From Eledone cirrhosa (taxonomy: Eukaryota): 64,000 bases of DNA. Below the pieces are notes generated by a model. It ran no database searches. It was not told the origin of the DNA and worked only from the letters and a program-made list of their open reading frames with translations. The position numbers were made by a program, and so were the translations under genes. The stretch lies in the NCBI GenBank assembly GCA_964016885.1, contig OZ024741.1, forward strand, positions 149,048,001-149,112,000, in the 5' to 3' direction. Shown piece after piece: positions 1,423 through 58,473 of the stretch (its first letter is position 1; the number at the start of each line of letters is the position of its first letter).

Positions 1423-1499
1423 TATATATATATATATATTATAAAATAACAGGAAGCTGAACTGGTGTAATTCCTTAAAGGTTTATTATACTATGAACA

Positions 1500-1687
1500 A
1501 GGGCGGTGGATTGGCAGTATCGGTAGACGGTCAGACGCCATGCTTTGGCGTATAGAGTTACGGCCCTTGCCATTCTCAGTTCAAATCCCGCCGAAGTTAA
1601 CCTTGCCTTTCATCTTTACGGGGTCGATAAAATAAAATACCAGTAATGCACTGGATTTTTGCTGCCCTTGTGCCAAAAGTAGAAACA
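1500..1687 (+). mobile_element. tRNA-derived SINE inserted in the left arm
   Basis: A-box-like TGGCAGTATCGG, B-box GTTCAAATCC, central GCCTTTCATCTTTACGGGGTCGATAAAATAAAATACCAG. 15-bp TSD ATTATACTATGAACA (1485-1499 / 1688-1702). Absent from the right arm. Confidence 0.9.
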
Positions 1688-1690
1688 ATT

Positions 1691-1748
1691 ATACTATGAA
1701 CATTTCAATGACCGGGTTCAGTATGAATCCGGTGACATCGTCAGGTAT
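1691..1748 (-). ncRNA. Type I hammerhead ribozyme motif (left arm)
   Basis: Minus strand ATAC-CTGACGA-[31-nt stem II, ACCGG/CCGGT]-GAAA-TGTTCAT-A-GTAT; same sequence as 35604-35661. Confidence 0.75.
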
Positions 1749-2276
1749 TCGAATTTTAAGAAAGGAAGTTGAAAAGGCAGAGACAAAAAGGCGACCACAC
1801 ATTTAGCAGTTTTTAGTTCGGTCGGCCACCTTCAAATGACGACTACCAATTCTTCTTATGTCTTTCTGGTGAAGAGGCGTAAGCTTATAGTGTACTACTA
1901 CCACTCCGTCATGGACAGAGGCTAGCAGTGGGATCAGGTTACATTGAAGTTGGTCAGAAGTGATAAAAGTACTAAGAAGTATATTTTTTCAAAAAACATA
2001 TATCTTTAACAAAGCTATATATAATGGACGCCTGTACAGTATATTTTTCATTGTAGGGTCAGAAAATACGATTAACGATTAGAAATGTAAAATTTGTGTT
2101 TAGAATTAAAAGATGTCATTTAAGATGAGATTAGAAAAGTAAGATTTAGGTTTAAAATTGGGAGATTTAATTAAAGAATTTACAGAAGGAGGCGTTTATG
2201 AAAAGGTTAAGTGTATTATTGATAGTCACGATAAAGTTTCAGGGTAGAATATAAAGTTAAGACTAAGCCCATGTTA

Positions 2277-2792
2277 GGCGGTCAGTAACCAGCGACGTTG
2301 CGGACTCCCAGCCCACCCGGGGCCCAATGGCATGTCAACCGTTCCGAGTATTTTCGTCTACGGAAAGAAAGGGAAATTTATTTTTCCGAGCACTCCAGGA
2401 ATGTTAACTGTCTCAAGCGCAGGGGGTGCTAGCGGGAAGCCCGCCATCGTCAGCTGATCATCGTGTATACCAAACGATTCTTAGTTATTCACACTGGTGG
2501 GAGATTTAGTTAGAGTGCTAGTAGGAGGCATGATAAATTTTAAAGTTATCATTAAGCCTAGAATTTAAAAGTAGTGTTTGGCGGTCAATAACCGGTGGCA
2601 CGGCGGATTCCAAGCCCGCACAGGGCCCAAGGACGTAACAGCCGTTCCGAGTATTTTCGTTTAGAAGGTGAAATTTATTTTTCCAAGCACTCTAGGAAGG
2701 CCGATCGACTCGAGCGCCTGGCGTGCGATCGGGAAAGCCGCCATATCAGTCGGATCATCGCGTGTACCAAACGATTATTAGTAATTCACACT
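2277..2792 (-). repeat. Two diverged ~215-nt GC-rich modules inside the left arm (2277-2495, 2580-2792)
   Basis: Shared blocks GGCGGTCARTAACC, CCGTTCCGAGTATTTTCGT, GAAATTTATTTTTCCRAGCACTC and TACCAAACGATT..TTAG..ATTCACACT. Confidence 0.9.
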
Positions 2793-2947
2793 CGTGATGT
2801 GAAGTTTAAAAGTGGCAAAATCTGATGAAATGGGTAAGAATACTATATTTAGTCCCCAGGTACCCGGGTTATATGTAGTGTGATTCCTGAGTGGGTATGG
2901 GGAGTGATTAAAGATAAACAGATATAAGGGTACAGAGAATAATAGTC

Positions 2948-5900
2948 TAGGGTTAGGGTTAGGGTTTGGATTTGGGTTAGGGTTTGGGTTTGGGTTTGCG
3001 TTTGGCTTTGGGTTAGGGTTAGGGTTTGGGTTTGAGTTAGGGTTTGGGTTTGGGTTAGGGTTATGATTAGGGCTAAGGTTAGAGTTAGGGTTAGGGTTAA
3101 GGTTAGGGTTAGGATTTGCATTTGGTTTAGAGTTAGGATAGGGTTTGGGTTAGGATTAATGTTAGGGTTAGGGTTAGGGTTAGGGTTAATGTTAAGGTTA
3201 GGGTTAGGGTTAGGGTTAATGTTAGGGTAAGGGTTTGGGTTTGTGTTAGGGATATGGTTAGGGTTAGGGTTAGGGCTAGGGTTAGGGTTCGGGTTTGGGT
3301 TAAGGTTAGGGTTTGGGTTTTGGTTAGGGTTATGGGTAGGGTTAGGGTTAGGTTTAGGGTTAGGGTTAGGGTTTGGATTGGGTTAGGGGTAGGGTTAGAG
3401 CTAGGGTTAGGGTTAGGGTTTGGGTTAGGGTTAGGGTTTGGATTTTGGTTAGGGTTATGGGTAGGGTTAGGGTTAGGTTTAGGGTAAGGGTTGGTGTTTG
3501 GGATGGGGTTTGGGTTAGGGTTAGGGTTAGGGTTACGGTTAGGGTTAATGTTAGGGTTACGGATAGGGTTACGGTTAGGGTTAGGGTCATGATTAGGGTT
3601 AGGGTTAAGGATAGGGTTAGGGGTAGTGTTAGGGTTAGGGTTAGGGTTAGGTTTAGGGTTAGGGTTAGGGTTATAGTTAGGGTTAATTTTAGGGTTAGGG
3701 TTAAGGTTAGGGTTAGGGTTAATGGTAGGGCGAGGGTTAGGGTTAATGTTAGGGTTAGGTATAGGGTTCGGGTTAATGTTAGGTTTTAGGGTTAGGGTTA
3801 GGGTTAATGTTAGGGTTAGGGTTAGGGTGAGTGTTAGGGTTAGGGTTAGGGTTAGGTTTAGGGTTAGGGTTAGGGTTAGAGTTAGGGTTAATTTTAGGGT
3901 TACGGTTAAGGTTAGGGTTAGGGTTAATGTTAGGGTTAGGGTTAGGGTTAGGGTTAATGTTAGGGTTAGGTATAGGGTTCGGGTTAATGTTAGGTTTTAG
4001 GGTTAGGGTTAGGGTTAATGTTAGGGTTAGGGTTAGGGTTAGGGTTTGGATTGGGTTAGGGGTAGAGTTAGAGCTAGGGTTAGGGTTAGGGTTTGGGTTA
4101 GGGTTAGGGTTTGGGTTTTGGTTAGGGTTATGGGTAGGGTTAGGGTTAGGTTTAGGTTTAGGGTTAGGGTTTGGATTGGGTTAGGGGTAGGCTAGGGTTA
4201 GAGTTAGGGTTTGGTTTAGGGTAAGGGTTGGTGTTTGGGATGGGGTTGGGTTAGGGTTAGGGTTTGGATTTGGTTTAGAGTTAGGATTTGGGTTTGGGTT
4301 AGGGTTAGGGTTAATGTTAGGGTTACGGATATGGTTACGGTTGGGGTTAGGGTCATGATTAGGGTTAGGGTTAAGGATAGGGTTAGGGTTAGTGTTAGGG
4401 TTAGGGTTAGGGTTAGGTTTAGGTTTAGGATTAGAGTTAGGGTTAATGTTAGGGTTAGGGTTAGGGTTAATGTTAGGGTTAGGTATATGGTTCGGGTTAA
4501 TGTTAGGTTTTAGGATTAGGGTTAGGGTTAATGTTAGGGTTAGGGTTAGGGTTAATGTTAGGGTTAGGGTTAGTGTTAGACTTAGTGTTATGATTAGGGT
4601 TAGATATAGGGTTCGGGTAAATGTTAGGTTTTAGGGTTAGGGTTAGGGTTAATGTTAAGGTTAGTGTTGGGTTAGGGTTAGGGTTAATGTTGGGGTAAGG
4701 GTTTGGGTTTGGGTTTGGGATAGGGTTAGGGTTTAGGTTTGGGTTAGGGTTAGGCTTAGGGTTAATGTTAGGGTTAGGGTTGGGTTAGGGTTAGGGTTAG
4801 GTTTAATGTTAAGGTTAGGGTTAGGGTTAGGGTTAATGTTATGGATAGTGTTCGGGTTAGGGTTAGGGTTAATGTTGGGGTAAGGGTTTGGGTTTGGGTT
4901 TGGGTTAGGGTTAGGGTTAGGGTTAGGGTTATGATTAGGGTTAGGGTTAGGGTTAGGGTTAATATAAGGGTTAGGGTTGGGGTTAGGGTTAGGGTTGGGG
5001 TTAGCGTTAGGTTTTGCGTTAGGGCTAGGGTTTGGGTTTGAGATAGGGTTTGGCTTTTAGTTAGGGTTATGGGTAGGGTTAGGTTTACGGTTATGGTTAG
5101 GATTAGGGTTTGGGTTTGGGTTAGGGTTTGGGTTAGGGTTTTGGATTGGGTTAGGTCTAGGGTTTGGGTTAGGGTTAGGGTTAGGGTTTGGGTCAGTGTT
5201 TGGTTTAGGGTTAGGATTTGATTTACGGTAAGGGTTGGTGTTTGAGTTGGTGTTTGGGTCAGGGTTAGGGTTTGGATTTTGTTTAAAGTTAGGATTTGAT
5301 TTTGGGTTAGGATTAATGTTAGGGTTTGGGATAGGGCTTCGGTTAGCGTTAGGGTTAGAGTTAGAGTTAGGATTAGGGTTAGGGTTAGCATTAATGTTAG
5401 CGTTAGGGTTAGGGTTAGGGTTAGGGTTAATGTTAGGGTTAGGTTTAGGTTTAATGTTAGTATTAGGGTTGGGGTTAAGGTCAGGGTTAATGTTAGGGTT
5501 ATGATTAGGTTAAGGGTTAGGGTTAGGGTTAGGGTTAATGTCAGGGTTAGCGTTAGGGTTAGGGTTAATGTTAGGGTTAGGGTTAGTGTTAGGGGTAATG
5601 TTAGGTTTACGGATAGGATTACGGTTAGGGTTAGGGTCATGATTAGGGTTAGGGTTAGGGTTAAGGTTCGGGTTAGGGTTAGGGTTAGGGGCAATGTTAG
5701 GGTTAGGGTTAGGGTTAATGTTAGGGTAAGGGTTTGGGTTTGGGATATGGTTAGGGTTAGGGTTAGGGCTAGGGTTAGGGTTAGGGTTTGGGTTAGGGTT
5801 AGGGTTTGAGTTAGGGTTTGGGATTGGGTTAGGGCTAGGGTTTGGGTTAGGGTTAGGGTTAGGCTTTGGTTTAGGGTAAGGGTTGGTGTTTGGGATGGGG

Positions 5901-8900
5901 TTTGGGTTATGGTTAGGGTTTGGATTTGGTTTAGAGTTAGGATTTGGGTTTGGGTTAGGGTTAGGGTTAGGTATAATGTTAGGGTTAGGGTTAATGTTAA
6001 GGTTAGGGTTAGGGTTAATGTTAGGATTAGGGTTAGGGTTAGGGTCAGTGTTAATGTTAGGCTTAGGGTTAGGGTTAGTGTAGGGGTAATGTTAGGGTTA
6101 CCGATAGGGTTACGGTTAGGGTTAGGGTCATGATTAGGGTTAGGGTTAAGTACAGGGTTAGGGTTAGGGTTAGGGTTTGGTTTAGGATTAGGGTTAGGGT
6201 TAGAGTTATGGTTAATTTTAGGGTTAGGTTTAAGGTTAGGGTTAGGGTTAATGGTAGGGTGAGGGTTAGGGTTAATGTTATTGTTAGGTATAGGGTTCGG
6301 GTTAATGTTAGGTTTTAGGGTTAGGGTTAGGGTTAATGTTAGGGTTAGGGTTAGGGTGAGTGTTAGGGTTAGGGTTAGGGTTAGGTTTAGGGTTAGGGTT
6401 AGGGTTAGAGTTAGGGTTAATTTTAGGGTTACGGTTAAGGTTAGGGTTAGGGTTAATGTTAGGGTTAGGGTTAGGGTTAGGGTTAATGTTAGGGTTAGGT
6501 ATAGGGTTCGGGTTAATGTTAGGTTTTAGGGTTAGGGTTAGGGTTAATGTTAGGGTTAGTGTTAGGGTTAGTGTTTGGATTGGGTTAGGGGTAGAGTTAG
6601 AGCTAGGGTTAGGGTTAGGGTTTGGGTTAGGGTTAGGGTTTGGGTTTTGGTTAGAGTTATGGGTAGGGTTAGGGTTAGGTTTAGGTTTAGGGTTAGGGTT
6701 TGGATTGGGTTAGGGGTAGGCTAGGGTTAGAGTTAGGGTTTGGTTTAGGGTAAGGGTTGGTGTTTGGGATGGGGTTTGGGTTAGGGTTAGGGTTTGGATT
6801 TGGTTTAGAGTTAGGATTTGGGTTTGGGTTAGGGTTAGGGTTAATGTTAGGGTTACGGATATGATTACGGTTGGGGTTAGGGTCATGATTAGGGTTAGGG
6901 TTAAGGATAGGGTTAGGGTTAGTGTTAGGGTTAGGGTTAGGGTTAGGTTTAGGTTTAGGATTAGAGTTAGGGTTAATGTTAGGGTTAGGGTTAGGGTTAA
7001 TGTTAGGGTTAGGTATATGGTTCGGGTTAATGTTAGGTTTTAGGATTAGGGTTAGGGTTAATGTTAGGGTTAGGGTTAGGGTTAGGGTTAGGGTTAATGT
7101 TAGGGTTAGGGTTAGTGTTAGACTTAGTGTTATGATTAGGGTTAGATATAGGGTTCGGGTAAATGTTAGGTTTTAGGGTTAGGGTTAGGGTTAATGTTAA
7201 GGTTAGTGTTGGGTTAGGGTTAGGGTTAATGTTGGGGTAAGGGTTTGGGTTTGGGTTTGGGATAGGGTTAGGGTTTAGGTTTGGGTTAGGGTTAGGCTTA
7301 GGGTTAATGTTAGGGTTAGGGTTGGGTTAGGGTTAGGGTTAGGTTTAATGTTAAGGTTAGGGTTAGGGTTAGGGTTAATGTTATGGATAGTGTTCGGGTT
7401 AGGGTTAGGGTTAATGTTGGGGTAAGGGTTTGGGTTTGGATTGGGTTAGGGTTAGGGTTAGGGTTAGGGTTATGATTAGGGTTAGGGTTAGGGTTAATAT
7501 AAGGGTTAGGGTTGGGGTTAGGGTTAGGGTTGGGGTTTGAGATAGGGTTTGGCTTTTAGTTAGGGTTATGGGTAGGGTTAGGTTTACGGTTAAGGTTAGG
7601 ATTAGGGTTTGGGTTTGGGTTAGGGTTTGGGTTAGGGTTTTGGATTGGGTTAGGTCTAGGGTTTGGGTTAGGGTTAGGGTTAGGGTTTGGGTCAGTGTTT
7701 GGTTTAGGGTTAGGATTTGATTTACGGTAAGGGTTGGTGTTTGAGTTGGTGTTTGGGTCAGGGTTAGGGTTTGGATTTTGTTTAAAGTTAGGATTTGGGT
7801 TTGGGTTAGGATTAATGTTAGGGTTTGGGATAGGGCTTCGGTTAGCGTTAGGGTTAGAGTTAGAGTTAGGATTAGGGTTAGGGTTAGCATTAATGTTAGC
7901 GTTAGGGTTAGGGTTAGGGTTAGGGTTAATGTTAGGGTTAGGTTTAGGTTTAATGTTAGTATTAGGGTTGGGGTTAAGGTCAGGGTTAATGTTAGGGTTA
8001 TGATTAGGTTAAGGGTTAGGGTTAGGGTTAATGTCAGGGTTAGCGTTAGGGTTAGGGTTAATGTTAGGGTTAGGGTTAGTGTTAGGGGTAATGTTAGGTT
8101 TACGGATAGGATTACGGTTAGGGTCATGATTAGGGTTAGGGTTAGGGTTAAGGTTCGGGTTAGGGTTAGGGTTAGGGGCAATGTTAGGGTTAGGGTTAGG
8201 GTTAATGTTAGGGTAAGGGTTAGGGTTTGAGTTAGGGTTTGGGATTGGGTTAGGGCTAGGGTTTGGGTTAGGGTTAGGGTTAGGCTTTGGTTTAGGGTAA
8301 GGGTTGGTGTTTGGGATGGGGTTTGGGTTATGGTTAGGGTTTGGATTTGGTTTAGAGTTAGGATTTGGGTTTGGGTTAGGGTTAGGGTTAGGTATAATGT
8401 TAGGGTTAGGGTTAATGTTAAGGTTAGGGTTAGGGTTAATGTTAGGATTAGGGTTAGGGTTAGGGTCAGTGTTAATGTTTGGCTTAGGGTTAGGGTTAGT
8501 GTAGGGGTAATGTTAGGGTTACGGATAGGGTTACGGTTAGGGTTAGGGTCATGTTTAGGGTTAGGGTTAAGTACAGGGTTAGGGTTAGGGTTAGGGTTTG
8601 GTTTAGGATTAGGGTTAGGGTTAGAGTTATGGTTAATTTTAGGGTTAGGTTTAAGGTTAGGGTTAGGTGTAATGTTAGGGTTAGGGTTCGGGTTAGGGTT
8701 AATGTTCGGTTTTAGGGTTAGGATTAGGGTTAATTTTGGGGTTAGGGTTAGGGTTAGGGTTAGGGTTAATGTTATGGATAGGGTTAGTGTTAGACTTAGT
8801 GTTATGGTTAGTGTTAGGGTTAGCTTTAGGGATAGGGTTAATGTTTGAGTTAGGATTAGGGTTAGGGTTAGTGTTAATGTTGGGGTAAGGGTTCGGGTTT

Positions 8901-11900
8901 GGCTTTGGGATAGGGTTAGGATTTAGGTTAGGGTTAGGGTTAGGGTTAATGTTAGAGTTAGTGGTGGCTTAGGGTTAGGGTTAATGTTAAGGTTAGGGTT
9001 AGGGTTAATGTTAGGTTTAGTGTTCGGGTTAGGGTTAGGGTTAATGTTAGGGTTAAGGTTAGGGTTATTGTTAATGTTAGGGTTAGGGTTAATGTTAGGT
9101 TAAGATTTGATTTTTGATTTGTCATATGGTTAGGGTTAGGGTTAGGGCTATGGTTAGGGTTAGGGTTTCGGTTAGGGTTATGGGTAGGGTTGGTGTTAGG
9201 GTTAGGGTTAGGGTTTGGTTTAGGATAAGGGTTGGTGTTTGGGATGGACTTTGGGTTAGGGCTAGGATTTGGGTTTGGGTTAGGACTAATGCTACGGTTT
9301 GGGTTAGGGTTAGGGTTAATGTTAAGATTAAGGTTAGGGTTAATGTTAGGATTAGGGTTAGGGTTAAGGTAGGGTTAATGTTAGGGTTACTGATAGGGTT
9401 ACGGTTAGGGTTAGCGTCATGATTAGGGTTAGGGTTAGGGTTAGGGTTAGAGTTAGGGTGAGGGTTAGGGTTAGGGTTAGGGTTGGGGATAGGGTTAGGG
9501 TTAGGGTTAGGGTTAGGTTTGGGGTTAGGCTTGGATTTAGGGTTAAGGTTAGGGTTAGGGTTGGGGTTAGGGTTGGGGTTAGGGCTAAGTTAGAGTTAGA
9601 GTTAGGGTTAGAGTTAGGGTTGGGGTCTGGGTTTGGTTTACGGTTAGGGTTTGGGTTAGGGTTAGGGTCAGGGTTAGGGTTAGGGTTAGGGTTAGGGTTG
9701 GGGTTGGGGTTAGGGTTAGGGTTGGGGTTAGGGTTAGGGTTAGGGTTAGGGTTGGGGTTAGGGTTAGGGTTAGGGTTGGGGTTGGGGTTAGGGTTAGGGT
9801 TAGGGTTAGGGTTAGGGTTGGGGTTGGTGTTGTGTTGGGGTTGGGGTTGGGGTTGGGGTTAGGGTTAGGGTTGGGGTTAGGGTTAGGGTGAGGGTGAATG
9901 TTAGGGTTAGGGTTAGGATTGGGATTGGGTTTGGGGTTAGGGTTGGGGTTGGGTCTAGGGTTAGGGTTGGGGTTAGGGTTAGGGTTAGGGTTAGCGTTAG
10001 GGTTAGGGTTCGGGTTACGGTTAGGGTTAGGGTTTGGGTTAAGGTTGGGGTTAGAGTTAGGGTTCGGGTTAGTGGTAGGGTTAGGGTTACGGTTAGGGTT
10101 AGGGTTGGGGCTGGGGTTGGTGTTGGGGTTGGGGTTAGGGTTAAGGTTGGGGTTGGGGTTGGGGTTAGGGTTAGTATTGGGTTGGGGTTGGGGTTAGTGT
10201 TATGGTTGGGTTTACGGTTAGTGTTAGGGTTTGGGTTAGGATTAGGGTTAGGGTTAGGTTTAAGGTTAGGGTTAGTTTTAGGGATAGGGTTAGCGATAGA
10301 GTTAGCATTAGGGTTAGGGTTAGGGTTAATGTTGGGGTAAGGGTTTGGGTTTGGGTTTCGGATAGGGTTAGGGTTTAGCTTAGGGTTAGGGTTAGGGTTA
10401 ATGTTAGGGTTAGTGGTGGGTTGGGGTTAAGGTTAGGGTTAAATTTAGGGTTAGGGTTAGGGTTAGGGTTAGGGTTAGGGTTAGGGTTAGGCTTTGGGTT
10501 AGTGTTAGGGTGTGAGTTAGGGTTTTGGTTTTGTTTAGGGTTATGGGTAGGGTTAGGGTTAGGGTTAGGATTAGCGTTAGGGTTAGGGTTTGGGTTTGAT
10601 TTAGGGTTAGGGATTGGTTTAGGGTTAGGGTTAGGGTTAGGGTTAATGTAAGGGTTGGGGTTAGGGTTAGCGTTAGGGTTAGGGTTAGGGTTAGAGTGGG
10701 GGTTAGGGTTAGTGTTAGGGTTGGGATTAGGGTTAGGGTTAGGGTTGGGGTTAGGGTTGAGGTTAGTGGTAGGGTTAGGGTTTGGGTTAGGGTTAGGGTT
10801 AGGGTTAGGTTTAGGGATAGGGTTAGGGTTAGGGTTAGGGTTAGGGTTAGGGTTGGGGTTAGGGTTAGGGTTAGGGTTAGGTTTAGTGTTAGGATTGGGT
10901 TTAGTGTTAGTGTTAGGGTTAGGGTTAGGGTTGGGGTTAGGGTTAGTGTTGGGGTTAGGGTTAGGGTTAGGGTTGGGGTTATGGTTAGGGTTAGGGTTAG
11001 GGTTAGATTTAGGGTTAGGGTTGGGGTTGGGGTTAGGGTTAGGGTTAGGGTTAGGGTAAGGGTTGGGGTTAGGGTTAGGGTTAGGGTTAGGGTTAGGGTT
11101 AGGGTTGGGGTTAGGGTTAGGGTTAGGTTTAGTGTTAGGATTGGGTTTAGTGTTAGTGTTAGGGTTAGGGTTAGGGTTGGGGTTAGGGTTAGTGTTGGGG
11201 TTAGGGTTAGGGTTAGGATTGGGGTTATGGTTAGGGTTAGGGTTAGGGTTAGATTTAGGGTTAGGGTTGGAGTTGGGGTTAGGGTTAGGGTTAGGGTTAG
11301 GGTAAGGGTTGGGGTTAGGGTTAGCGGTAGGGTTAGGGTTGGGGTTAGAGTGGGGGTTAGGGTAGGGTTAGGGTTGGGGTTAGGGTTAGGGTTAGGGTTG
11401 GGGTTAGGGTTAGGGTTGAGGTTAGTGGTAGGGTTAGGGTTACGGTTAGGGTTAGGGTTGGGGCGGGGTTGGTGTTGGGGTTGGAGTTAGGGTTAGGGTT
11501 GGGGTTGGTGTTGGGGTTAGGGTTAGGGTTTGGGTTAGGGTTAGGGTTAGGGTTAGGGTCAGGTTTAGGGATAGGGTTAGGGTTAGAGTTAGGGTTAGGG
11601 TTAGGGTTGGGGTTAGGGTTAGGGTTAGGGTTAGGTTTAGTGTTAGGATTGGAGTTAGTGTTAGGGTTAGAGTTAGGGTTAGGGTTGGGGTTAGGGTTAG
11701 GGTTGGGGTTAGGGTTAGGGTTAGGGTTAGGTTTAGGGATAGGGTTAGGTTTAGGGTTAGGGTTAGGGTTAGGGTTAGGGTTAGGGTTAGTGTTAGGATT
11801 GGGGTTAGTGTTATGGTTGGGGTTAGGGTTAGGGTTAGGGTTAGGGTTAGGGTTAGTGTTAGGATTGGAGTTAGTGTTAGGGTTAGGGTTAGGGTTAGGG

Positions 11901-33200: not shown

Positions 33201-34029
33201 TGGGGTTGAGGTTGGGGTTAGGGTGAGTGTTAGGGTTAGGGTTGGAGTTAGGGTTTGGATTAGATTTGGGATTAGTGTTAGGTTTATGGTTAGGGTTAGG
33301 GTTAGGGTTACTTTATGGTTATGGTTAGGGTTAGTTTTAAGGTTAGGGTTTGGTTTAGGGTCCCGGTTGGTGTTAGGGTTAGGGTTAGGGTTAGGGTTTG
33401 AGTTTGCGTAGGTTTAGGGTTTGGGTTAGGGTTTGTGTTTGAGTCAGGGCTAGGGTTTTCGTTTAGGGTTAGTGTTTGGGTAAGGGTTAGGGTTTGGGTT
33501 TGGGTTTGGGTTAGAGTTAGGGTTATGTTTAGGGTCAAGGTTAGGGTTAGGTTTAATGTTAGTGTTAAGGTTAGAGTTAATGTTATGTTTAGTGTTATGG
33601 TTAGTGTTAGCGTTAGGGTTACAGTTAGTGTTATGTTAAGAGTTAGGTTTAAAATTAGTGTTCGGGTTAGGGTTAGGATTAGGTTTAATGTTAGGCTTAG
33701 TGTTAGCGTAATGTTATGGTTAGGGATAGGGTTACAGTTAGGGTTACATTTAGGCTTAGATTCAAGGATATGGTTATGCTTAATGTTCGTGTTACTGTTA
33801 GGGTTAGTGTTAGAGTTAGAGTTAGAGTTAGGTTTAGTTTTAGGGTTAGGGTTAGTTTTAGGGTTACGGTTAATGTTATGGTCAGGGTTTGGGTTAATGT
33901 TAGGGTTAATGCTAGGGTAAGCGTTAGGTTTAGGTTTAGGGTTAATGTTAGGCTAATGGTTAGTGTTAATGTCAGGTTTAGGGTTAAGGTTAGGGTTAGG
34001 GTTAGCGCTGGGGTTAATGTTAGGGTTAG
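2948..34029 (+). repeat. Interstitial telomere-like array, (TTAGGG)n with variant hexamers (TTGGGG, TTTGGG, TTAATG, TTAGTG, TTAGGT, TTAGGA, TTCGGG)
   Basis: About 31 kb of G-rich hexamers, all on the + strand; no CCCTAA block; most degenerate at the distal end. Confidence 0.98.
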
Positions 34030-34033
34030 TCTT

Positions 34034-34328
34034 ATCATCATCATCATTTGATTTTACATCCGCTTTTCCCTGCTTGCAAGGGTGGGACGGGAACTGATTC
34101 TGGCTTGATTTCTACAGCTTGATGCCCTTCCTAACACCAAACTCATTTACAGTGAGTGCTGGGTGCTTTTTTGCACCCAGCACTGTCATCTCATTTCTAC
34201 AGCTGAGTAAACTGGAGCAATGTGAAATAAAGTGTCTTGCTCAAATAACAACACATCATCCGGTCTGAGAATTGAACTCACAACCTTTCGATTGCAAGCC
34301 CAATGCTCTAACCACTAAGCTATGTGCC
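34034..34328 (-). mobile_element. Full-length tRNA-derived SINE with RTE-type (GAT)n tail
   Basis: Minus-strand head GGCACATAGCTTAGTGGTTAGAGC...GAGTTCAATTC (A/B boxes), body TTGAGCAAGACACTTTATTTCAC, tail ...GAAAAGCGGATGTAAAATCAAATGATGATGATGAT. The tail resembles the RTE 3' end at ~37645-37700. Confidence 0.88.
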
Positions 34329-34400
34329 TATTTATGTATTTCTTCAGTTTTCTCTCCATATATACTTATCCTTTTACTCTTCTGTTACCTAAAATTAACG

Positions 34401-35712
34401 ACCCTAGACTATTATTCTCCGTACCCTTATATCTGTTTATCTTTAATCACTCCCCATACCCACTCAGGAATCACACTACATATAACCCGGGTACTTGGGG
34501 ACTAAATATAGTATTCTTACTCATTTCATCAGATTTTGCCACTTTTAATCTTCACATCACGAGTGTGAATTACTAATAACCGTTTGGTACACGCGATGAT
34601 CCGACTGATATGGCGGCTTTCCCGATCGCACGCCAGGCGCTCGAGTCGATCGGCCTTCCTAGAGTGCTTGGAAAAATAAATTTCCCCTTCTTTCGGCAAA
34701 CGAAAATACTCGGAACGGCTGTTACGTCCTTGGGCCCTGTGCGGGCTTGGAATCCGCCGTGCCACCGGTTATTGACCGACAAACACTACTTTTAAATTCT
34801 AGGCTTAATCATAACTTTAAAATTTATCATACCTCCTACTAGCCCTTTAACTAAATCCCCCACCAGTGTGAATAACTAAGAATCGTTTGGTATACACGAT
34901 GATCAGCTGACGATGGCGGGCTTCCCGCTAGCACCCCCTGCGCTTGAGGCAGTTAATATTCCTGGAGTGCTCGGAAAAATAAATTTCCCTTTCTTTCCGT
35001 AGACGAAAATACTCGGAACGGTTGACACGCCATTGGGCAACGTCGCTGGTTACTGACCGCTAAACATGGGCTTAGTCTTAACTTTATATTCTACCCTGAA
35101 ACTTTATCGTGACTATCAATAATACACTTAACCTTTTCATAAACGCCTCCTTCTGTAAATTCTTTAATTAAATCTCCCAAATTTGAACCTAAATCTTACT
35201 TTTCTAATCTCATCTTAAATGCACATCTTTTAATTCTAAACACAAATTTTACATTTCTAATCGTTAATCGTAATTTCTGACCCTACAATGAAAAATATAC
35301 TGTACAGGCGTCCATTATATATAGCTTTGTTAAAGATATATGTTTTTTGAAAAAATATACTTCTTAGTACTTTTATCACTTCTGACCAACTTCAATGTAA
35401 CCTGATCCCACTGCTAGCCTCTGTCCATGACGGAGTGGTAGTAGTACACTATAAGCTTACGTCTCTTCACCAGAAAGACATAAGAAGAATTGGTAGTCGT
35501 CATTTGAAGGTGGCCGACCGAACTAAAAACGGCTAAATGTGTGGCCGCCTTTTTGTCTCTGCCTTTTCAACTCCATGGATTATATTCCTTTCTTAAATTT
35601 CGAATACCTGACGATGTCACCGGATTCATACTGAACCCGGTCATTGAAATGTTCATAGTATAATAAACCTTTAAGGAATTACACCAGACCAGCCTCCTGT
35701 TATTTTATAATA
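34401..35712 (+). repeat. Right arm of ~1.3-kb inverted repeat
   Basis: Reverse complement of 1437-2953 without the SINE. Contains modules 34562-34780 and 34865-35060 and the HHR at 35604. Preceded by ~70 bp of non-telomeric sequence (34329-34400) that the left arm lacks. Confidence 0.95.
35604..35661 (+). ncRNA. Type I hammerhead ribozyme motif (right arm)
   Basis: Stem I ATAC/GTAT; core CTGACGA 35608-35614; stem II with ACCGG/CCGGT and TTCA/TGAA; GAAA 35646-35649; near-palindromic stem III ATGTTCAT; predicted cleavage after AUA. Confidence 0.75.
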
Positions 35713-35851
35713 ATTAACTCCGTACTCGCACCACCAACAACACAAACGAAGACGGGTGAGTTGCATTACGTCGAGTGCTCTTCCTAATATTACATCGAGG
35801 TTGACCATACGGCATGACCAGTTCTATCCAGTGGTGAACCAACAAACCTAA

Positions 35852-35893
<42 letters not shown>

Positions 35894-36069
35894 GTATGTA
35901 TATATATATATATGTGTATGTATAATACAGAAGACATGCCTTCCCACGTGCACAGGTTGAAGCATACATCTAGTATGCACCACTTTACCTTTATTCTCCC
36001 CTCCCCTTCCATACACCTCCCACGTCATAATGTTAAATGTTGATGGTGATGATTAGATATGTATCAATT

Positions 36070-36197
36070 GATTTATTATGGCTGAGTGGTGAGTTTAGTT
36101 ACGCTGGTGTTTCACCTGCTCACTCACTCTGATGACCCTATTAGTGAGCAGGTGAAACTCCAGAGTGACAGGACTCACTATCTAGTCGTAATAAATG
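36070..36197. repeat. Fold-back with ~55-bp arms around a degenerate HHR core
   Basis: Perfect GTTTCACCTGCTCACT/AGTGAGCAGGTGAAAC with imperfect outer arms. CTGATGA lies in the loop; GAAACTCCAGAGT lies in the right arm. Confidence 0.7.
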
Positions 36198-36332
36198 AAT
36201 ATTTAAACTCTACTTTGGTATTAAGTACTTTTTCTCTCTCAGTCGTTAACTACATACAAATACATACATATATATACATACATATATATTTGGAAGAAAT
36301 AGGAAGCTGAGTGTTACTTGATAAAGTGTATT

Positions 36333-37469
<1,137 letters not shown>

Positions 37470-38672: not shown

Positions 38673-40480
<1,808 letters not shown>

Positions 40481-40499: not shown

Positions 40500-42287
<1,788 letters not shown>

Positions 42288-42770: not shown

Positions 42771-42846
42771 TATATATATACATATTTATATATATAATAA
42801 TAATAATAATATTAGTTATACTTATATATAAACTATATGTGAAGAA

Positions 42847-42988
42847 GGCGCATGGCTTAGTGGTTAGAGTATTGGGCTTGCAATCGAAAGGTTGTGAGTT
42901 CAATTCTCGAACCGGGTGATGTGTTGTTTCCTTGAGCAAGACACTTTATTTCACGTTGCTCCAGTTTACTCAGCTGTAGAAATGAGTA
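42847..42988 (+). mobile_element. tRNA-derived SINE, 3'-truncated
   Basis: GGCGCATGGCTTAGTGGTTAGAG...GAGTTCAATTCTC; closely similar to the head and body of the SINE at 34190-34328. Confidence 0.88.
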
Positions 42989-45380: not shown

Positions 45381-45660
45381 TTTTAAGACTATATAGAGCA
45401 TTTGTAGTTTTTCCAAATTGAAGGATGAGTATTTAAACTTTATTTTATTCTGAGTTAAGACTCTATTGGTTTTTTCCCTGGATTTCACAAAATCTGTGGA
45501 TAAAATCTCTCTATGGATTTATTTTTAATTGAGTTTGAATTATTTTCCCATATCTTACGTCAAATATTTTCCATTTTGACGTTATAGTCATTTATATATT
45601 ATGAAATACTGTTGGCTTCTTTCTCACATTAATTTTTCTATTTTCATATATATATATATA

Positions 45661-47571
45661 TATTGTTATACTTGGGGAGGGTCATATTTGTGTAATATTG
45701 CCAGAATTAATAACAGAACACACTCACTGTTTGGTTGGTTTTCGCTTCTCGCTTTTGTGTCTTTTATATCGGTAATCTAACTTACTCGATCCTCAATGTT
45801 GCCATTGACTGACCGACGGTCAAAAATAATACAGATACAATATAGACACAAACACATATATATAGTTTATCATAAATCTTTCGTTGCACATCTGCAACAT
45901 CGTCAGTGGTGTTATATCTTCCTCCTGTTGTATTGTATGTCTACGCTATTTTTATTCAGTCTGTCTATATATTTATTTATTTATTTGCTTGTTTGTTTAT
46001 TTTATTTTGTCTTCTTTGCGCATGCGTTTGCGTGTGTGTATAGTGTTTTGTTTGCTGTGATGGGTGACTAGTGTGTGTTTATGTGCTTGTTGTTATTGTG
46101 CTTGTGTATGTATTTATTTATTTTATTTTATTTACTTATTTATACTTCTCTTAGGTCAGTGTTGTTTGTTTGGGTGTTGTTGTTATTCCATTCATTCTTT
46201 CTGTTTAGCCTTGGTCTTCTAATTTCTATTTCACTGGCCTATTTCTATGTTTAGATATTATTCTAATTTCTATGTTGTCTATGTTACCGTCATGTTGTTG
46301 TCTAGCATGTTCGTATAGTACTGACCCGTTTTTTCGTCCTTTTAGTTCCCCCCAGTGTTGGTCTATCCTTTCACCTATGCTACGAGCTGTCTCACCTATG
46401 TATGTTGTTCTCATGTTTCTGCAAGTACCCTCTGTACATCTTATGCTATAGACTACGTTTCTAGTTTTACAGTTTATCAGGGGGTTCACCTTACATATGA
46501 TACATTTCCTATTGGTACAGTGGGTTTTCTTAAAAGGGTAGGTTTTGCTGATCAGGGATTTTATGGTGGTTCCTGGCTTTTCTACCACCTTTATTTTTAA
46601 GTGGGTCTTTCTCAGGGCCTTTCTACACTGGTTAGCTAATTTCCCTCCAGGGGTGGCGTCCACAAACATGACACTCTGGTATCTCTGGTTGTCGTACCAT
46701 GAGGTGGCTTTCCCTATCTTATGTCTAGCCCTATCTAAGCTATTCCATGATTTGCTCCTGTATAATGGGCAAATTCCTTTCATGTCCAGTTCTATGAGGG
46801 TCTTATATACTTTTCCATGGCTCCTTCGTATACTCTGACTCTGTCTCTTTGGTTGTAGCCAGAGAACTGCATACGGTTGATGAAGTGTTGGATGTGTCTT
46901 TCCATTTCTGTTGGGTCGCACATGCGGGACACATTCTTTATCACTCGTACCAAATCTGCGATCAGAATATTAAACTTAGCACTACTGGACATTGCTGAGT
47001 TTTTGAGTATCAGGTATTTGGAGGCCACGGGTTTAGCATAGTGTGAGTGGAGAATTTGGGCTCTCTCGTCTATAGTGTTAATCCAGAGTTCTGTGTCTAA
47101 TACAGGTAGTCTATTGTTAGGGTGTTTGGAAGGGAAGTCGATAGTTACAGTTATACTCTGGTGTATGGAATTAGCTATCTACTGGATGCTTTCCATCGTG
47201 CTACGTTCTAAATCAAACTTGTTAGTGCTCTCTAGTGGGGGTGTTCTTATAACTATATTGATATCGTCTACATAACGAGAGTACATGATGAGGTCTATGG
47301 AGCTCTCATTAAGGAGATCTTTAAGTCTCCTTTCCCACCATACCATGAAAAGGTTGGCAACATCACCAGCTATGCTGACGCCGAAGGCTGCTCCCTCATT
47401 TTGGGTGTAGATCTTCTCGTTGAACTTAAATATGTGGCCCTTTAGGGTAGTTTTGATACTAGCCCCTATTGCATGTGCGACCATTTTTCTTACCTGATCA
47501 TTGTTTTGGGGGGTCCGTATAGCTTTGGTCCACCCAATCCACCTTCCCATGGGAGTCTCTTTTGCCATTGA
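45661..47571 (-). mobile_element. Inverted 5'-truncated copy of the Penelope-like element (RT C-terminal half, GIY-YIG, 3' UTR)
   Basis: Reverse complement of 54984-56901. ORF pieces 47179-47568 (RYVDD), 46792-47028 and 46226-46921 (YIGET). Ends in (TA)n. Confidence 0.95.
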
Positions 47572-48221
47572 TACACAACAAACATATCAAAACAAGTAAA
47601 TAATTTATTATTGAACAAAACACAAGCCGAACGACTAAAACACACAATAACAGTTAATATGAAAAGAACAACATACACAAAAGTCAACGCACTTTACAGA
47701 CAGAAACGCATTAACGGTAAGGAAATCCGAAATCTCATCACAGCAAACGAGAGAGATAACTTCATGAGCGTCATCCGACGTGAAACGAAATACGCTCGAA
47801 ACGAATGCAATAGGCATTTCAATAAGAAATTAGAATGGATGAATAAGAAAAAACTACAAGAAAGGAAAATCGAATATTCTCAAAAATACCCAGATAACAT
47901 CGACAATATCCGTATGACTGATGTAAAACTACCGGAAGAATTTACCAATGACCACACAGTAAATATCTATGGGAACACTTTAATCAGTGAACAAGAACAA
48001 CAAATCCTGCGGCTACCACCAAAATTTGCCATCTACAAAAAGATTAACCCTATGGAGTGCAAAACGGAGCTGGAAAAGTGTTTCACAAAAATACGTTGGA
48101 ATGCAAAGGTAAACAACAACAACAATAATAACGGTAGTAGTAATATAAACAATAACTCTGAGTATAGAAATAACAGCCATAACTATAACAATAGCAGGAA
48201 AATGAGAAATAGTGATAATGG

Positions 48222-48485
48222 TAAAGAAAAGTGATGTTTCTCTTTGTCGAATAAATAAATGCACAACCAAGTCTAACAATCATTTTATTTAATGCAATAA
48301 TTTAGTAAATTTCCTACAACGTCAATATTTTGAGGAGCGGATCTTTCCACGTCTGTTCATGTCCGTGGTCCAAAAAGAGTGAGTGAACCTGTGGCTGTGT
48401 CCGGGTGTATTTTTGCCTCCCCTCCCTGAAGGGTTGTTAAGGGGAGGCAACTGCTAGCTACCAAGCGACCATCTCAGCCACTACA
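48222..48485 (-). repeat. 3' LTR
   Basis: Direct repeat of 53424-53687; element strand TGTAG...TTTA. Confidence 0.95.
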
Positions 48486-48969
48486 TTCACCTCGGAGCAG
48501 ATTTTTTGTCGCAAAATCGTTAACAATGAAGCGAAGGTAGTTTACAAAATGTAGAAGGATGTATCAACAAATTCAAAATTAAAAAAAAAAATAATAAATA
48601 GGTTCATGTCTGCAAGCATTAACGCAGACAAAAAAAAAAAAAAAAAAAAAACGTACAGTAAAAGATGCAAAATGCATGAAAAGATAACACTCTTCGCAAT
48701 AAAGGGGCCCCGGATGCGATAAACAAGAAAAAAAATGTTTTGCTAGGCAATGAAAATGCCATATGTAGCATAGTTATAAAAATGCACTAAAAAAAAAGGG
48801 ACTGTGTCAGAATTGACAACAGTCGTAATGTTACGCAAAATATAATATATTGACACTGCCGTAGGCAGTCAAGAATCCAAAGGTAACAAAATGCAATGTA
48901 CAACAAAAACAATTGGAAGGAAAAAAATAACAAAACAAAACAAAAAAATAAAAAAAAAAAAAATACAAT

Positions 48970-51900
48970 TCAGTTTATATTACTGCATAGCTTACGGGGC
49001 CAATGCACCCTTCGCCCAGAACGGGTCGTAGTTCTGTGTGTTGATGGTGGGGGAGGGGAAGAAATAGGCCTGTGTGGCAAAGAAAAAGAGGGGGGCATTT
49101 GAGTTTCAAGTGTCATTGTGTCATTGTCCAGGTTTGCTCGTTTGAGACGATCAACGGAAACCGTTTCCCTGGAACCCCGAATGTCCAGTGTGAAATGTTT
49201 GTCTGTGCGAGCAAGCACACGATAGGGTCCAGAGTACGGCCGTTGAAGAGGGGGTCTCACGGCGTCGTCTCTAACGAACACATGGGTCCACAAGGCAATA
49301 TCCCTTGGGACGGCAGTTTTTACAGTCTGCTTCCTAGTGCCCATCGGTGGTAGATCCTTGAAATAAGAGTGAAGCCGGGACACGTAGGAAGCGGGGTCCT
49401 GCGAAGTCAAGTCAAAAGGGGCCAGCATTTGCCCCGGTAACGCCAGAGGCGTACCATAAACTAATTCGGCAGAGGAGAACCCAAGGTCCACCTTTACCGT
49501 CGACCGAATACCCAACAATACAATGGGTAGGTACTCGCTCCAACGTGAAGAGTCCATGGAAGCCCTTAAGGAGGCTTTGAGCTGCCTGTGGAATCTTTCC
49601 ACCATTCCGTTTGAGGCTGGGTGGTAAGCCGTGGTTCTTATTCGAGTAGCCCCCAGGATTTGGGTTAGCTCTCGGAAGAGGTTAGACTCGAATTGACGAC
49701 CACGATCTGTTGTTATGGTGGTTGGTACACCGAAACGAGCGATCCACGAAGATACGAGGGTACGGGCTGTGGTTTCGGCGGTGATATCTGTTATAGGGAC
49801 GGCTTCAGGCCAACGCAAAAAACGGTCAACAATCGTCAAAAGATACGAAAAACCACGACTAACCGGCCACGGGCCGACGATGTCCACATGAATGTGACGA
49901 AATCTTGCATCGGGGCAGGTGAAGGTTCCGAGAGGAGCCTTAACATGTCTATGAACTTTCGCTTGTTGGCAAGCGACACAGGAACGACACCAAGCAGCAA
50001 TGTCACGTCTCATACCAGGCCAGAAAAATCTGGCTGTTATGAGTTTTACTGAGGCTGATACTCCTGGGTGAGAAATGCCATGTAAAGCGAGAAACGCAGT
50101 TCGTCGATGTTCCACTGGGACTAGAGGTCGTGGTGAGTCCAACGAAACATCACACAGTATCTGTCCGTCAGCAGTTGAGATCGGAATGTATTTCAGTTTG
50201 CAATGTACAAACTCTGGCGATGTAACATCCAACGATTCGAGAGTGGGTTGGGCAGCTGCCATTCGATGTAAATCTATCTGCTCGGAAGACGAAATCGATG
50301 CGATCGGCAGGCGAGACAGCGCATCGGCCGCTGTATTCAAAGAACCCGGAATATGTTGAATGTCGTTCGTGAACTGTGAGATGAAGTCCAGATGTCTCGT
50401 TTCTCTGGGCGAGTATTTGTCTGCCTTAGTTCGAAGAGCAAACGTCAAGGGTTTATGATCAGTGAAAATGGTGAATGTTCTACCTTCAAGTACATGAGCA
50501 AAATGTTTCACTGATAAATAAATTGCTAATAGCTCCCTTCCAAAGGTGCTATAGCGAGTTTCTGCAGGCTTTAACTTCCTCGAAAAGAACTCGAGTGGTT
50601 GCTGTACCCCATCACCCTTCTGCTGTAAAACTGCGCCCACAGCGCTGTCCGAAGCATCAACACAGAGCGATAGCTCGGCGTTGGGTACTGGGTGGGCGAG
50701 CAAAGACGCGTTCGCTAACGCCTTTTTCACTTTTTTAAAATCATCAAGCTGCGTTTCATTTAAGGAAATGTCCATATTCTTACGCGGGCAACCCTTAAAA
50801 ATCTCTGTCAACGAGAACAACAATTTGGAACAACCAGGTACGAATCGCCTATAAAAATTTACAAGGCCCAGGAATTGACGCAATTGACGCAGTGAACTTG
50901 GCGGAGGCAAATCCGATACTGCCTTAACCTTCTCAGGAAGAGGTCGAATACCATCGGCGTCAATCAGATGGCCTAAAAATGTTAGTGAAGTCGAGCCGAA
51001 AACACACTTGGAAGCATTAATTCGAACATTATAGATCTGTAAACGACGAAATACGAGATCCAGATGCTTTGAATGCTACTGAGGGGAAGAACTAGCAATC
51101 AACACGTCGTCGATATACGTGTACACAAAATCCAGGCCCCGAGTAATATCATCCATAAATCGTTGGAAGGTACTTGCAGCGTTTCTAAGGCCGAAAGGCA
51201 TAGTGAGGAACTCGAACGATCCGAAAGGAGTGGCAATAGCAGTCTTTGGGATATCCTCCTCGTTAACCGGAATTTGGTTATAAGCGCGGATCAAATCAAG
51301 CTTAGAAAAGATTCTGCAACCCTGCAATGACGACGCAAAATCCTGCAAATGCGGGATTGGATAACGGTCAGGCACAGTAATCGCGTTTAAGCGTCGGTAG
51401 TCACCCGTCGGTCTCCAATCCCCAGAAGATCTAGGTACCATATGCAGAGGCGATGCCCAAGGACTTGTGGAGCGCCGAATTATTCCCAATTCCAGCATGT
51501 GGTCGAATTCAAGACGTGCAGCTTTCAACTTCTCTGTAGACAATCTTCGAGGACGTGAGAAAACAGGTGGACCTGTAGTGGATATGAAGTGTTCAATCGC
51601 GTGGTCCGGGCTAGTTATTCGTAACTTTCCCTGCGTCAACTGAGGGAATGAATGCAGCAGGCTTTGATACTGGTTGCCCACTTCAGCCAAGAAAAAGGAA
51701 GGGCTGACGGTGGCGACGTCCGGCTCAGAACCCTCGAAAGAAAGGCCTGTTTCAGCATCAACAAGGCGTTGTCTGCGAATGTCCACCAACAAGGGAAAAT
51801 GGTGGAGAAAATCCGCTCCCAAAATGGCGTATGGCAAGTCGGCGACAGTAAACTTCCACCTCAAATCACGCCGCAAATTTTTTAACCGAAGAGGAAGCGA

Positions 51901-52125
51901 AATTTGCCCATACGTTCGAATGGCCGTGTGGTTGACTGCTCGTAGATTTATATCTGCTTCGGCTGGGCTTTTTTTGAGATAACTGACTGGCCAAATACTC
52001 AGCGACGCGCCAGTATCGACAAGGAAAAATTTTTTTGACCGCAGGTCGTATACGAAAAGATGGCGGTTCGGTCGGTTTTCCCAGAGTTCACTAGCCGCTC
52101 CTAGTGGCTCTGCTTGGCGTTTCCC
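48970..52125 (-). pseudogene. pol: Gypsy pol (protease, RT, RNase H, integrase) with one in-frame TAG
   Basis: One frame from the slippery site: [21 protein letters not shown] at 51076-51078, DASD..VGAVL, HHCC zinc finger, DDE core (IHVDIVG, ITTDRG, GMVER), GPY module. Confidence 0.92.
52081..52125 (-). promoter_or_regulatory. Programmed -1 ribosomal frameshift signal (gag-pol)
   Basis: G GGA AAC heptamer in the gag frame (52125-52119), a 6-nt spacer, then stem-loop CAGAG-C-CACTAG/CTAGTG-AA-CTCTG. pol is in the -1 frame. Confidence 0.8.
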
Positions 52126-52886
52126 GATCTCTTATAATCACAGGGCGTGCGACAACGTTGCGCCCTACTGCCGAAGTTAGCATGGTACCAACACAACGAA
52201 GAATTATTGTTGCCTGCATTGTAGTGCTGGCGATGAATAGAGGACGGCGGCGAACGATACCTCAAACGTTGAGAAGGCTCTCTGTGATGTACCGTCAAAT
52301 CCTCTACCTTTTTGGTGAGAGCTTCAATCAACTCCAACAGTTTGCCGTCGGCCACAGAAGAACTGCGTGGAGGGACGCAAGCTGAAGCCACATATGGGTT
52401 ATGCTGATTGCTGTTCGAGTCCACCTCAAGTATCCTATCCGCGGACGCGGCAAGTTGCTCCAGTGAATCCTTCTCTAAACTATTGACCAATATTCTTTGC
52501 GCACTTGGTGGTAGGCGTGAGAAAAAAAGTTGCTTTATGAAGGGGGTGTCAATCCTCTGGGAGTCGCTCAACTCCCGCAAATGTCGCAAATAGGAGCTCG
52601 GCTTCCTGTCACCCATTTGAGCATCGTCCAACAACTCCCGCAAACGGCTCTCTACCGACTTGGTATTTCGGCGAAGGATTTCTTTTTTTAATGAGCCGTA
52701 GGTAACGTCGGCGTCTAAATCCGTCACAACGTCCTTCACCGAGAATGCCAAGGAAACAGGTAGGCCATTGATCAGGACCTTCAGCTTATGCTGTTCCTTT
52801 GTCTTCGTCAATTCGAAGAAACATTCCAGCTGCGCAAACCACAACTTGATGTCGCCTGCGAAGGACGGCAAATGATGTTGACTCAT
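52101..52886 (-). CDS. gag: Gypsy Gag (261 aa)
   Basis: LPSF...[38 protein letters not shown] (CX2HX9CX3C). Confidence 0.92.
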
Positions 52887-53408
52887 GGTGCCACGTATTT
52901 GATGACTTTTTGGTGTTGGTCAATAGTTAGCCAGGTGTTGCTGCTGATTGCTGGTAATTTTTTTTCTTTAAAAAAAAATATCCCAAAGAAAATTTTAATA
53001 ATAAAAAAAAAATCATTTTCTATGAAAATTAATGGTAAGGAAATCCAAGATGGCTGATTTAAAAATGTGTCCGTGATGAAGCCGTCATGAAGCACGATGC
53101 AGCCAATCAGATGGCTGGGATTGGAGAAGACAGGCTGAACGCGGGAAAACGAAATATCTCCATTTGTAATTTCCACAGGATGTTGGAAGCAAAATTCTAT
53201 TTCCAGAGAAATCCTTTTTTTTTTTTTTTTTTTTTTTTTTGTTGTGTGTTGTATTTTTGTGTTTGTCTGTATGCGTGCTATAACAAATGGAATATAATGA
53301 ATTTTATGGACTTACGCTAAGTGATTCGGACATTCCAAATGTTAAGCCATTCCACATTGCCGTTAAAAAGAATTTCGGACTCCAATAGGCTGCGTTTTCA
53401 TTCTTTAT

Positions 53409-53422: not shown

Positions 53423-53423
53423 A

Positions 53424-58460: not shown

Positions 58461-58473
58461 TTAATAATAATTA

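Follow-up and report, generated by a model that had tools for sequence, protein, structure and literature searches.

A degenerate 31-kb TTAGGG-like array enclosed by inverted, putatively Penelope-like arms in Eledone cirrhosa

The window, i.e., the whole stretch of DNA analysed here, comprises 64,000 nucleotides from Eledone cirrhosa (assembly GCA_964016885.1, contig OZ024741.1, positions 149,048,001 to 149,112,000 of the forward strand). It contains two inverted arms of about 1.3 kb, which enclose a long TTAGGG-like array and are bounded on their outer sides by (TA)n runs. The features of this locus, in window coordinates, are the following:

1420-1438: (TA)n run that borders the left arm on its outer side and also stands at the 3' end of another Penelope copy (1-1439)
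1437-2953, minus strand: left arm, an inverted copy, lacking a tail, of a putatively Penelope-like 3' module whose sense strand is the minus strand
1500-1687, plus strand: insert private to the left arm, flanked by a 15-nt target duplication (1485-1499 / 1688-1702)
1691-1748, minus strand: minimal type I hammerhead-like motif, left copy (relaxed descriptor)
2052-2271, plus strand: C-poor spacer with cryptic TTAGGG phasing
2272-2499: GC-rich unit A, 76% identical to unit B
2500-2574, plus strand: C-poor spacer with weak TTAGGG phasing
2575-2796: GC-rich unit B, tandem paralogue of unit A
2797-2947, plus strand: C-poor spacer before the junction (spacer C)
2947-34032, plus strand: degenerate (TTAGGG)n array of 31 kb with higher-order duplications (hexamer scan and block-duplication search)
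2948-2953, plus strand: junction, where arm and array overlap by the 6 nt TAGGGT (arm alignment end, seed scan and 19-mer search)
34035-34329, minus strand: SINE-like element with a tRNA head, lying between the end of the array and the right arm (Rfam tRNA at 34265-34322)
34330-34400, minus strand: 71-nt continuation of the right arm, of spacer-like composition, with an array-type 12-mer at its start
34401-35712, plus strand: right arm, a putatively Penelope-like 3' module whose sense strand is the plus strand
35604-35661, plus strand: right copy of the minimal type I hammerhead-like motif, with an AATAAA signal after it (relaxed descriptor)
35713-35854, plus strand: extension of about 140 nt (putative tail), right copy only
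35855-35924: (TA)n run at the right outer end

Using blastn, the left pieces 1437-1499 and 1688-2953 align to 35712-34401, and mismatches between the arms occupy 27 of the 1292 columns of the alignment (2.1%), a count obtained after cutting out the 188-nt left-arm insert, which may move it by one or two. Gene conversion can homogenise inverted repeats, in which case 2.1% would understate the age of the arms. The insert itself is presumably SINE-like. The arm alignment ends exactly past 2953/34401, and the inner end of the inverted pair (1437-2953 / 35712-34401) is formed by a shared 19-mer located at 2935-2953 on the plus strand and 34401-34419 on the minus strand. These are the sole two matches in the 64-kb window at up to three mismatches, with a mean of 0.05 matches in shuffled sequence. 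Past the 6-nt seed at its end, the left copy passes in register into the 31-kb array. The letters at the junction are therefore as the preliminary description had claimed, with the 19-mer at both arms and the left copy running on into the array. The arm is present in two copies in the window, and bacterial and archaeal genomes gave 0 matches to it.

The arm spacers carry traces of the TTAGGG period. The phasing score of spacer 2052-2271 was attained by 1 of 2000 dinucleotide shuffles (2/2000 for the right copy) and by 15 of 2344 background windows, and 14 nt of this spacer recur exactly in the distal array, a match length that 53 of 2000 shuffles also reach. For spacer 2500-2574, the corresponding numbers were 21/2000 shuffles (101/2000 for the right copy) and 11/2368 background windows, and in spacer 2797-2947 no significant phasing was found (601/2000). 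An order-4 Markov score for array-likeness flagged zero arm windows, and the phased test alone gave a signal. There is thus moderate evidence for fossil tracts in the arm spacers. A coding origin of units A and B was rejected for lack of support, with substitutions spread 17/18/18 by position modulo 3. The units had no relevant Pfam match, and the one unit B frame searched had no homologue. Their RNA fold z ranged from +0.54 to -2.77 depending on the strand, and on the right-arm side no relevant Rfam family that would make the units a structured RNA was found in 33900-36600. The frames across the junction gave no match in one search and a single match in another, at 36% identity in 10 stretches and apparently of low complexity, which was set aside.

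The array contains 2137 perfect hexamers among 5105 units (42%), with a mismatch of 13.2% per base or 0.79 per unit, no perfect run longer than 9 units and 108 phase jumps. It is degenerate from its first units. The initial two units past the seed hexamer are perfect; overall, perfect hexamers account for 3 of the first 10, 8 of the first 20 and 20 of the first 50, so that the sequence after the seed does not resemble a telomerase product as had been proposed. Among the last 50 units, 11 are perfect. The first 20 units show 14.2% mismatch, and the probability of finding at most 8 perfect units in 20 at the 2.1% of the arms is 4e-7. With 0.88 mismatches per unit (74th percentile of the array), the junction edge is ordinary for the interior, and the distal edge is the most decayed, with 1.24 mismatches per unit (99.7th percentile). 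The decay pattern at both edges is that of a sharp cut into an old array and is the opposite of telomerase polarity.

Duplicated blocks (at least 200 nt, at least 95%) cover 47% of the array. Seven large blocks that were compared are 0.4-3.3% apart, so the age of much of the array growth is similar to that of the arms or below it. The double variant TTAATG was observed 139 times versus 21 expected, spread from 3156 to 34014. Furthermore, the variant profile of the distal end has a cosine of 0.77-0.83 with positions 3400-9000, 0.55 with the first 450 nt and 0.38-0.50 with the TTGGGG-rich middle. The TTAATG excess and the likeness of the distal end to 3400-9000 point to descent from a pre-diverged founder, and the satellite would accordingly have been enlarged internally from a founder that had already diverged. 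The array is internal, as 30 kb of ordinary repeat-rich DNA without N lie beyond it, and it mixes exact and degenerate TTAGGG over many kb, as in the multi-kb internal tracts classed as het-ITS. A coding role was rejected because every frame contains more than 1000 stops and because of the 108 phase jumps. A head-to-head telomere fusion was rejected as well, since the array holds no CCCTAA block and its G skew is positive throughout.

At the far end, the array is followed by the SINE-like element, whose Rfam tRNA match at 34265-34322 scores 32.5 bits against a gathering threshold of 29 and which is 93% identical to 42846-42986. No target duplication was seen in the flanks of 34035-34329. One end of this element lies at the right continuation and the other abuts the far end of the array, which places the array end 370 nt from the right arm. 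The 71 nt between this element and the right arm have the composition of the arm spacers (purine 0.70, C 0.056), and 54 of 5021 background windows are as extreme. Their TTAGGG phasing is not significant, as 415 of 2000 shuffles attain the score. One nucleotide into them begins a 12-mer, first spotted by eye, of which the array holds 8 instances as a variant unit; when the 71 nt were shuffled with their dinucleotides preserved, an array match of 12 nt arose in 35 of 2000 cases, and in 1 of those it begins within the first 5 nt. The earlier view of this continuation as non-telomeric is not confirmed, given the array-type 12-mer at its start, although the phasing result speaks for it. In addition, the right arm had been proposed to preserve the unbroken state. 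Because their composition matches the arm's own spacers, the 71 nt are probably native to the arm, in keeping with this proposal, whereas the polarity of the change cannot be proven from one locus with two copies and no outgroup. These observations suggest that the native continuation is itself decayed telomere-like DNA.

The architecture of Penelope-like elements (PLEs) has been described, including a microhomology-mediated 5' junction and unrelated DNA captured between pLTRs (PMC3846280). Inverted truncated copies, one-sided tails and a microsatellite bias are known for these elements (10.1101/2021.04.23.441226), and minimal hammerheads mark their pLTRs (PMC4209133, PMC7761336). The present insertion has an inverted 5'-truncated copy, a tail at one end and microsatellite flanks, and a target duplication of 1437-35854 would be indistinguishable inside (TA)n. 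The tail, with about 140 nt, is longer than the 30-40 nt described for PLE extensions (10.1101/2021.04.23.441226) and had no other match within the window.

A hammerhead-like motif and AATAAA lie near the outer end of both arms. The core and the helices of the motif are present, with an imperfect helix II, a loop 3 that is not a perfect palindrome and a helix I of only 4 bp. The descriptor that recognises it was loosened after the motif had been seen; both arms and 5 other motifs pass, compared with 0 of 2000 arm shuffles. Two stricter descriptors missed the motif, Rfam did not list it in a scan of 33900-36600, and the overall fold z of the right copy is -0.13.

A neighbouring protein-coding Penelope in the same window (45660-56957), whose ORF shares 64% identity with an RT-domain protein from Octopus vulgaris, provides a direct comparison. 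It has an inverted 1.9-kb copy, 1.0% apart, that ends in (TA)n without an extension, and its main copy carries an extension of about 55 nt followed by (TA)n. The arms repeat this outer-end pattern, with a tail on one side only and (TA)n at both outer ends. We infer that the arms are the inverted pair of a Penelope-like insertion at 1437-35854. Since no RT or GIY-YIG coding remnant was found in them by Pfam on 9 arm frames or by homologue searches, the structure is rated as one that appears to work like a non-autonomous PLE insertion and not as a member of the group; it would be at most a non-autonomous derivative of putative kinship. A DNA transposon with long terminal inverted repeats is disfavoured, given that the extension is one-sided, that a hammerhead-like motif is present and that the locus resembles the neighbouring PLE, and Pfam named no transposase among 16 frames selected from the ORFs of the window.

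On the strand of the right copy that corresponds to the junction, the longest TTAGGG match is 6 nt, reached at 3 of 1383 positions in three separate places, and none reaches 7 nt. The array does start in register at a 6-nt telomere-matching seed, as first described, and this overlap is real and unlikely to have arisen by chance. Counted with the array's own variants, the overlap is 9 nt, and such a 9-mer occurs 4 times in the array; this longer overlap is not significant, as 30 of the 64 possible 3-mers are found directly before the seed at some place in the array. However, the in-register overlap does not single out telomerase, because microhomology-mediated joining to an existing array predicts the same. 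It is expected under every reading except an assembly misjoin and hence cannot carry the telomerase claim. More generally, an in-register TTAGGG overlap alone is no proof of telomerase action.

Two origins had been offered for the junction. The first, a healed chromosome end, conflicts with an array that is internal and stops 370 nt from the partner arm, with 0.79 mismatches per unit versus 2.1% between the arms, with the strongest decay at the distal end and with the higher-order duplications. A recombination-type join fits better than a freshly healed chromosome end. The second, a telomerase-capped cDNA end, agrees with the strand polarity, as the plus strand of the left arm is the antisense (cDNA) strand of the Penelope-like 3' module, but it draws nothing particular from the overlap, which microhomology joining leads one to expect equally.

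The reading that we tentatively prefer, with a probability of roughly 0.45, is that a 5'-truncated inverted PLE-like copy was joined by microhomology to a pre-existing degenerate tract, which later expanded. The junction would then be the 5' truncation point of the inverted copy in the PLE-like insertion 1437-35854, between its (TA)n runs. The growing strand of this copy, which is G-rich and corresponds to the plus strand of the window, may have halted at the arm's best TTAGGG-like seed and re-annealed in register to a TTAGGG-like tract that was already degenerate and lay upstream of the main copy, either through a template switch or through microhomology-mediated joining. Afterwards, the tract could have lengthened in place to 31 kb via block duplication. 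An array older than the junction is favoured because it lies 13.2% off TTAGGG (14.2% in its first 20 units), compared with 2.1% between the arms. Since only 47% of the array lies in detected duplicated blocks, the founder tract may have been many kb, which is long for an RNA template. In addition, an earlier inversion would be needed, because the G-strand of the array is opposite to that of the right copy's spacers.

Seeding by telomerase is unlikely. Here, a truncated cDNA end would have been extended by telomerase from the 6-nt seed during PLE integration. The short tract would next have been joined to the other break end, as in telomerase-made short ITSs, or would have formed a chromosome end that was later re-fused; unusually fast decay and amplification would have followed. 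The position of the break at a longest seed and the two perfect units after it are in line with this, and so is the G-strand polarity on the cDNA end, since in PLEs that lack an endonuclease telomeric repeats are added to the truncated 5' ends (PMC3846280, PMC6431247). ITSs made by telomerase typically show 1-8 nt of in-register microhomology (PMC2246262), an octopod is reported to have TTAGGG as its telomere motif (PMC13218726), and the right continuation looks native in composition. As for the later history of the tract, proximal telomere variants can build higher-order repeats of up to 3.4 kb (PMC11406999), and a G>T excess at GGG suggests that the tract may mutate faster than neutral. Nevertheless, an approximately twelvefold higher per-lineage change than in the arms would be required (13.2% vs about 1%). 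Telomerase seeding also leaves unexplained why purity is lowest distally, and the 31 kb hold no perfect run of more than 9 units. An internal array that lacks a CCCTAA block in head-to-head orientation and stops beside the partner arm, to which it would have had to be re-fused, likewise speaks against this origin, and no telomeric stretch follows the hammerhead-like motif, unlike in Terminons.

A wider form of this idea is more doubtful still, namely that the truncated cDNA of a Penelope-type element that integrates internally is capped by host telomerase at a built-in TTAGGG-like seed, that the sealed end grows into a satellite of tens of kb and that a non-autonomous octopus PLE family, with spacers that are fossil telomere-like tracts left by earlier rounds, is a repeated source of ITSs. 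If true, the capped-cDNA reading would link telomeric (Athena-like) and internal PLE behaviour. Should independent copies have switched to pure TTAGGG at the same base, this would mean that telomerase finishes internal retroelement insertions in octopus, which would interest both the telomere and the transposon fields.

It is likewise rather improbable that the repeat family itself has a TTAGGG-like tract at this position, which the left copy kept and expanded while the right copy was truncated or rearranged. Such a native tract would account for the cryptic phasing in two of the three arm spacers, one of them with the 14-nt exact match to the distal array, and for the array-type 12-mer at the start of the right continuation. 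The arm can moreover be regarded as a tandem of GC-rich unit plus C-poor spacer, in which the array occupies the place of a further spacer. However, divergence between the copies is 2.1% as far as the junction, beyond which they cannot be aligned, so that the right copy is not accounted for by simple decay. If the right copy were the derived one, extra breakpoints within 14 nt would be needed as well as a filler that happens to be of spacer-like composition (54/5021 windows), and neither spacer C nor the 71 nt is significantly phased. Judging from the neighbouring element and the PLE insertions described in 10.1101/2021.04.23.441226, the tail-less copy would usually be the inverted truncated one.

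A DNA-level rearrangement without retrotransposition has a low probability. In this case, a template switch at a replication fork or in break repair would have begun at (TA)n, produced an inverted copy of 1.3 kb of the right arm and left it at the seed for the array close by. The left arm does have a short overlap at either end, (TA)n on the outer and 6-9 nt on the inner side, the array end is only 370 nt from the seed of the right arm, and ITSs are reported to be fragile and recombinogenic (PMC6410037). On the other hand, the two switches must jointly mimic the PLE layout that is seen independently in the neighbouring element. An assembly misjoin at a repeat boundary is very improbable: junctions of long repeats are error-prone and PLE structures trouble assemblers (10.1101/2021.04.23.441226), but the window contains no N, 27 substitutions, several indels and one private insertion flanked by its target duplication set the arms apart, and the array blocks are distinct and not collapsed.

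A Helentron-type element was also considered, as we take such elements to be possible carriers of TAACCC tracts. Neither the literature search nor PMC12818792 gave support for a carrier of this type.

The microhomology-joined PLE-like copy that we prefer combines two parts that are known separately, namely large degenerate ITSs and inverted PLE insertions. In the literature surveyed, with Dfam and Repbase outside its scope, no description was found of their combination at this size or of this element. The locus is best read as a clear case of a large telomere-like satellite inside, and bounded by, a retroelement insertion, and its arms, at 2.1% divergence, offer a dated setting in which to measure satellite growth.

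In comparison with endonuclease-bearing PLEs that carry an inverted 5'-truncated copy (pLTR pair), the structure shares the head-to-head 3' modules, the extension at one end, the microsatellite flanks, a candidate minimal hammerhead-like motif near the 3' end and the DNA captured between the repeats. It differs in that the arms have no ORF and contain two GC-rich units, the interior is 31 kb of telomere-like DNA and the extension measures about 140 nt. The endonuclease-less telomeric PLEs Athena, Coprina and Terminons (the last as described in a review) also have G-rich repeats after the truncated 5' end on the cDNA strand, a hammerhead near the 3' end, to which the candidate motif would correspond, and decayed C-rich repeat stretches within the sense strand. 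In contrast to these, the 3' end here lies in (TA)n and not in a telomeric overhang, the copies form no head-to-tail chain, the cap is neither short nor pure, and there is no RT by which to place the element. The sequence after the hammerhead-like motif also has no CCCTAA run, the reverse-complement telomeric stretch that is a trait of Athena and Terminons.

Large degenerate ITSs that were amplified in place and are flanked by mobile elements are known (PMC6410037; 10.64898/2026.05.10.723265; PMC11406999). Like het-ITS (PMC6410037), which are heterochromatic and often pericentromeric and to which it can be likened by sequence alone, the array is a long internal tract mixing exact with degenerate TTAGGG, which grew by duplication and has mobile elements at its flanks, whereas here near-identical inverted retroelement arms enclose it and 42% of its units are perfect. 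With telomerase-made short ITSs and neotelomeres it has in common the 6-nt in-register microhomology, which falls within the 1-8 nt reported (PMC2246262; 10.1101/2022.10.31.514589), but it is not terminal, is hundreds of times longer than short ITSs and shows the greatest decay distally, whereas the repeats added at a neotelomere are expected to be canonical and purest towards the distal end. Mammalian ITSs contain 0-0.14 mismatches per unit when young and 0.29-0.40 when old, in a set that excluded ITSs with at least 1 per unit (PMC2246262, Table 3), compared with 0.79 in the present array.

The inverted arms flanking the telomere-like array were compared with an internal model, the Penelope-type element at 45660-56957. 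This element and further repeats and remnants of the window are as follows:

1-1439, 3' part of a Penelope element of the same family, older and more diverged
2272-2499 and 2575-2796, two tandem 228-nt GC-rich units of the left arm, with copies in the right arm
36335-36483, long, near-perfect hairpin
38800-39950, remnant resembling the one at 57278-58765
40560-42050, minus strand, broken non-LTR (LINE-type) reverse transcriptase (RT) fragment (Pfam RVT_1, 7e-21)
45660-56957, Penelope-type element carrying a 5'-truncated copy of 1.9 kb in inverted orientation
48222-53687, minus strand, Gypsy-like LTR retrotransposon
57278-58765, inverted pair (302 nt, 93%) enclosing an ORF remnant (57922-58470, minus strand)

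The model element encodes an RT, a GIY-YIG-like C-terminus and an Asn-rich linker, its coding sequence being interrupted by frameshifts and stops, and its inverted copy mismatches at 19 of 1909 positions. The Gypsy-like element lies inside the Asn-rich linker; it carries gag-like, protease, RT, RNase H and integrase regions between 264-nt LTRs that differ at two positions. The Penelope part at the left edge of the window shows 91-92% identity across 3-251 and 71-72% in the pLTR, and meets the left arm tail to tail at a single (TA)n run.

The ORF remnant at 57922-58470 resembles a GIY-YIG end by eye, and Pfam returned no relevant match for it; together with its inverted pair, it is probably another Penelope remnant. 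The hairpin is possibly a small inverted-repeat element, its miRNA matches being spurious and under the gathering score.

The tandem GC-rich units share 76% identity with each other and contain conserved AT-rich blocks; neither coding bias nor an Rfam family match was found for them. Within the array, two variant styles were distinguished, with TTAATG/TTTGGG-rich edges (2947-9000 and 33250-34032) and a TTGGGG-rich middle (9000-33250); the favored substitution at position 3 is A>G, and at positions 5-6 it is G>T.

Further minimal hammerhead motifs occur at 37539, 42427, 43585 (minus strand), 44717, 59012, 61079 (minus strand), 63019 and 63559, with shuffles giving ≤0.18. An identical helix I is common to several of them, as is a palindromic helix III, and some lie within short inverted pairs (43491-43692/62908-63113 and 58942-59520/60670-61150).
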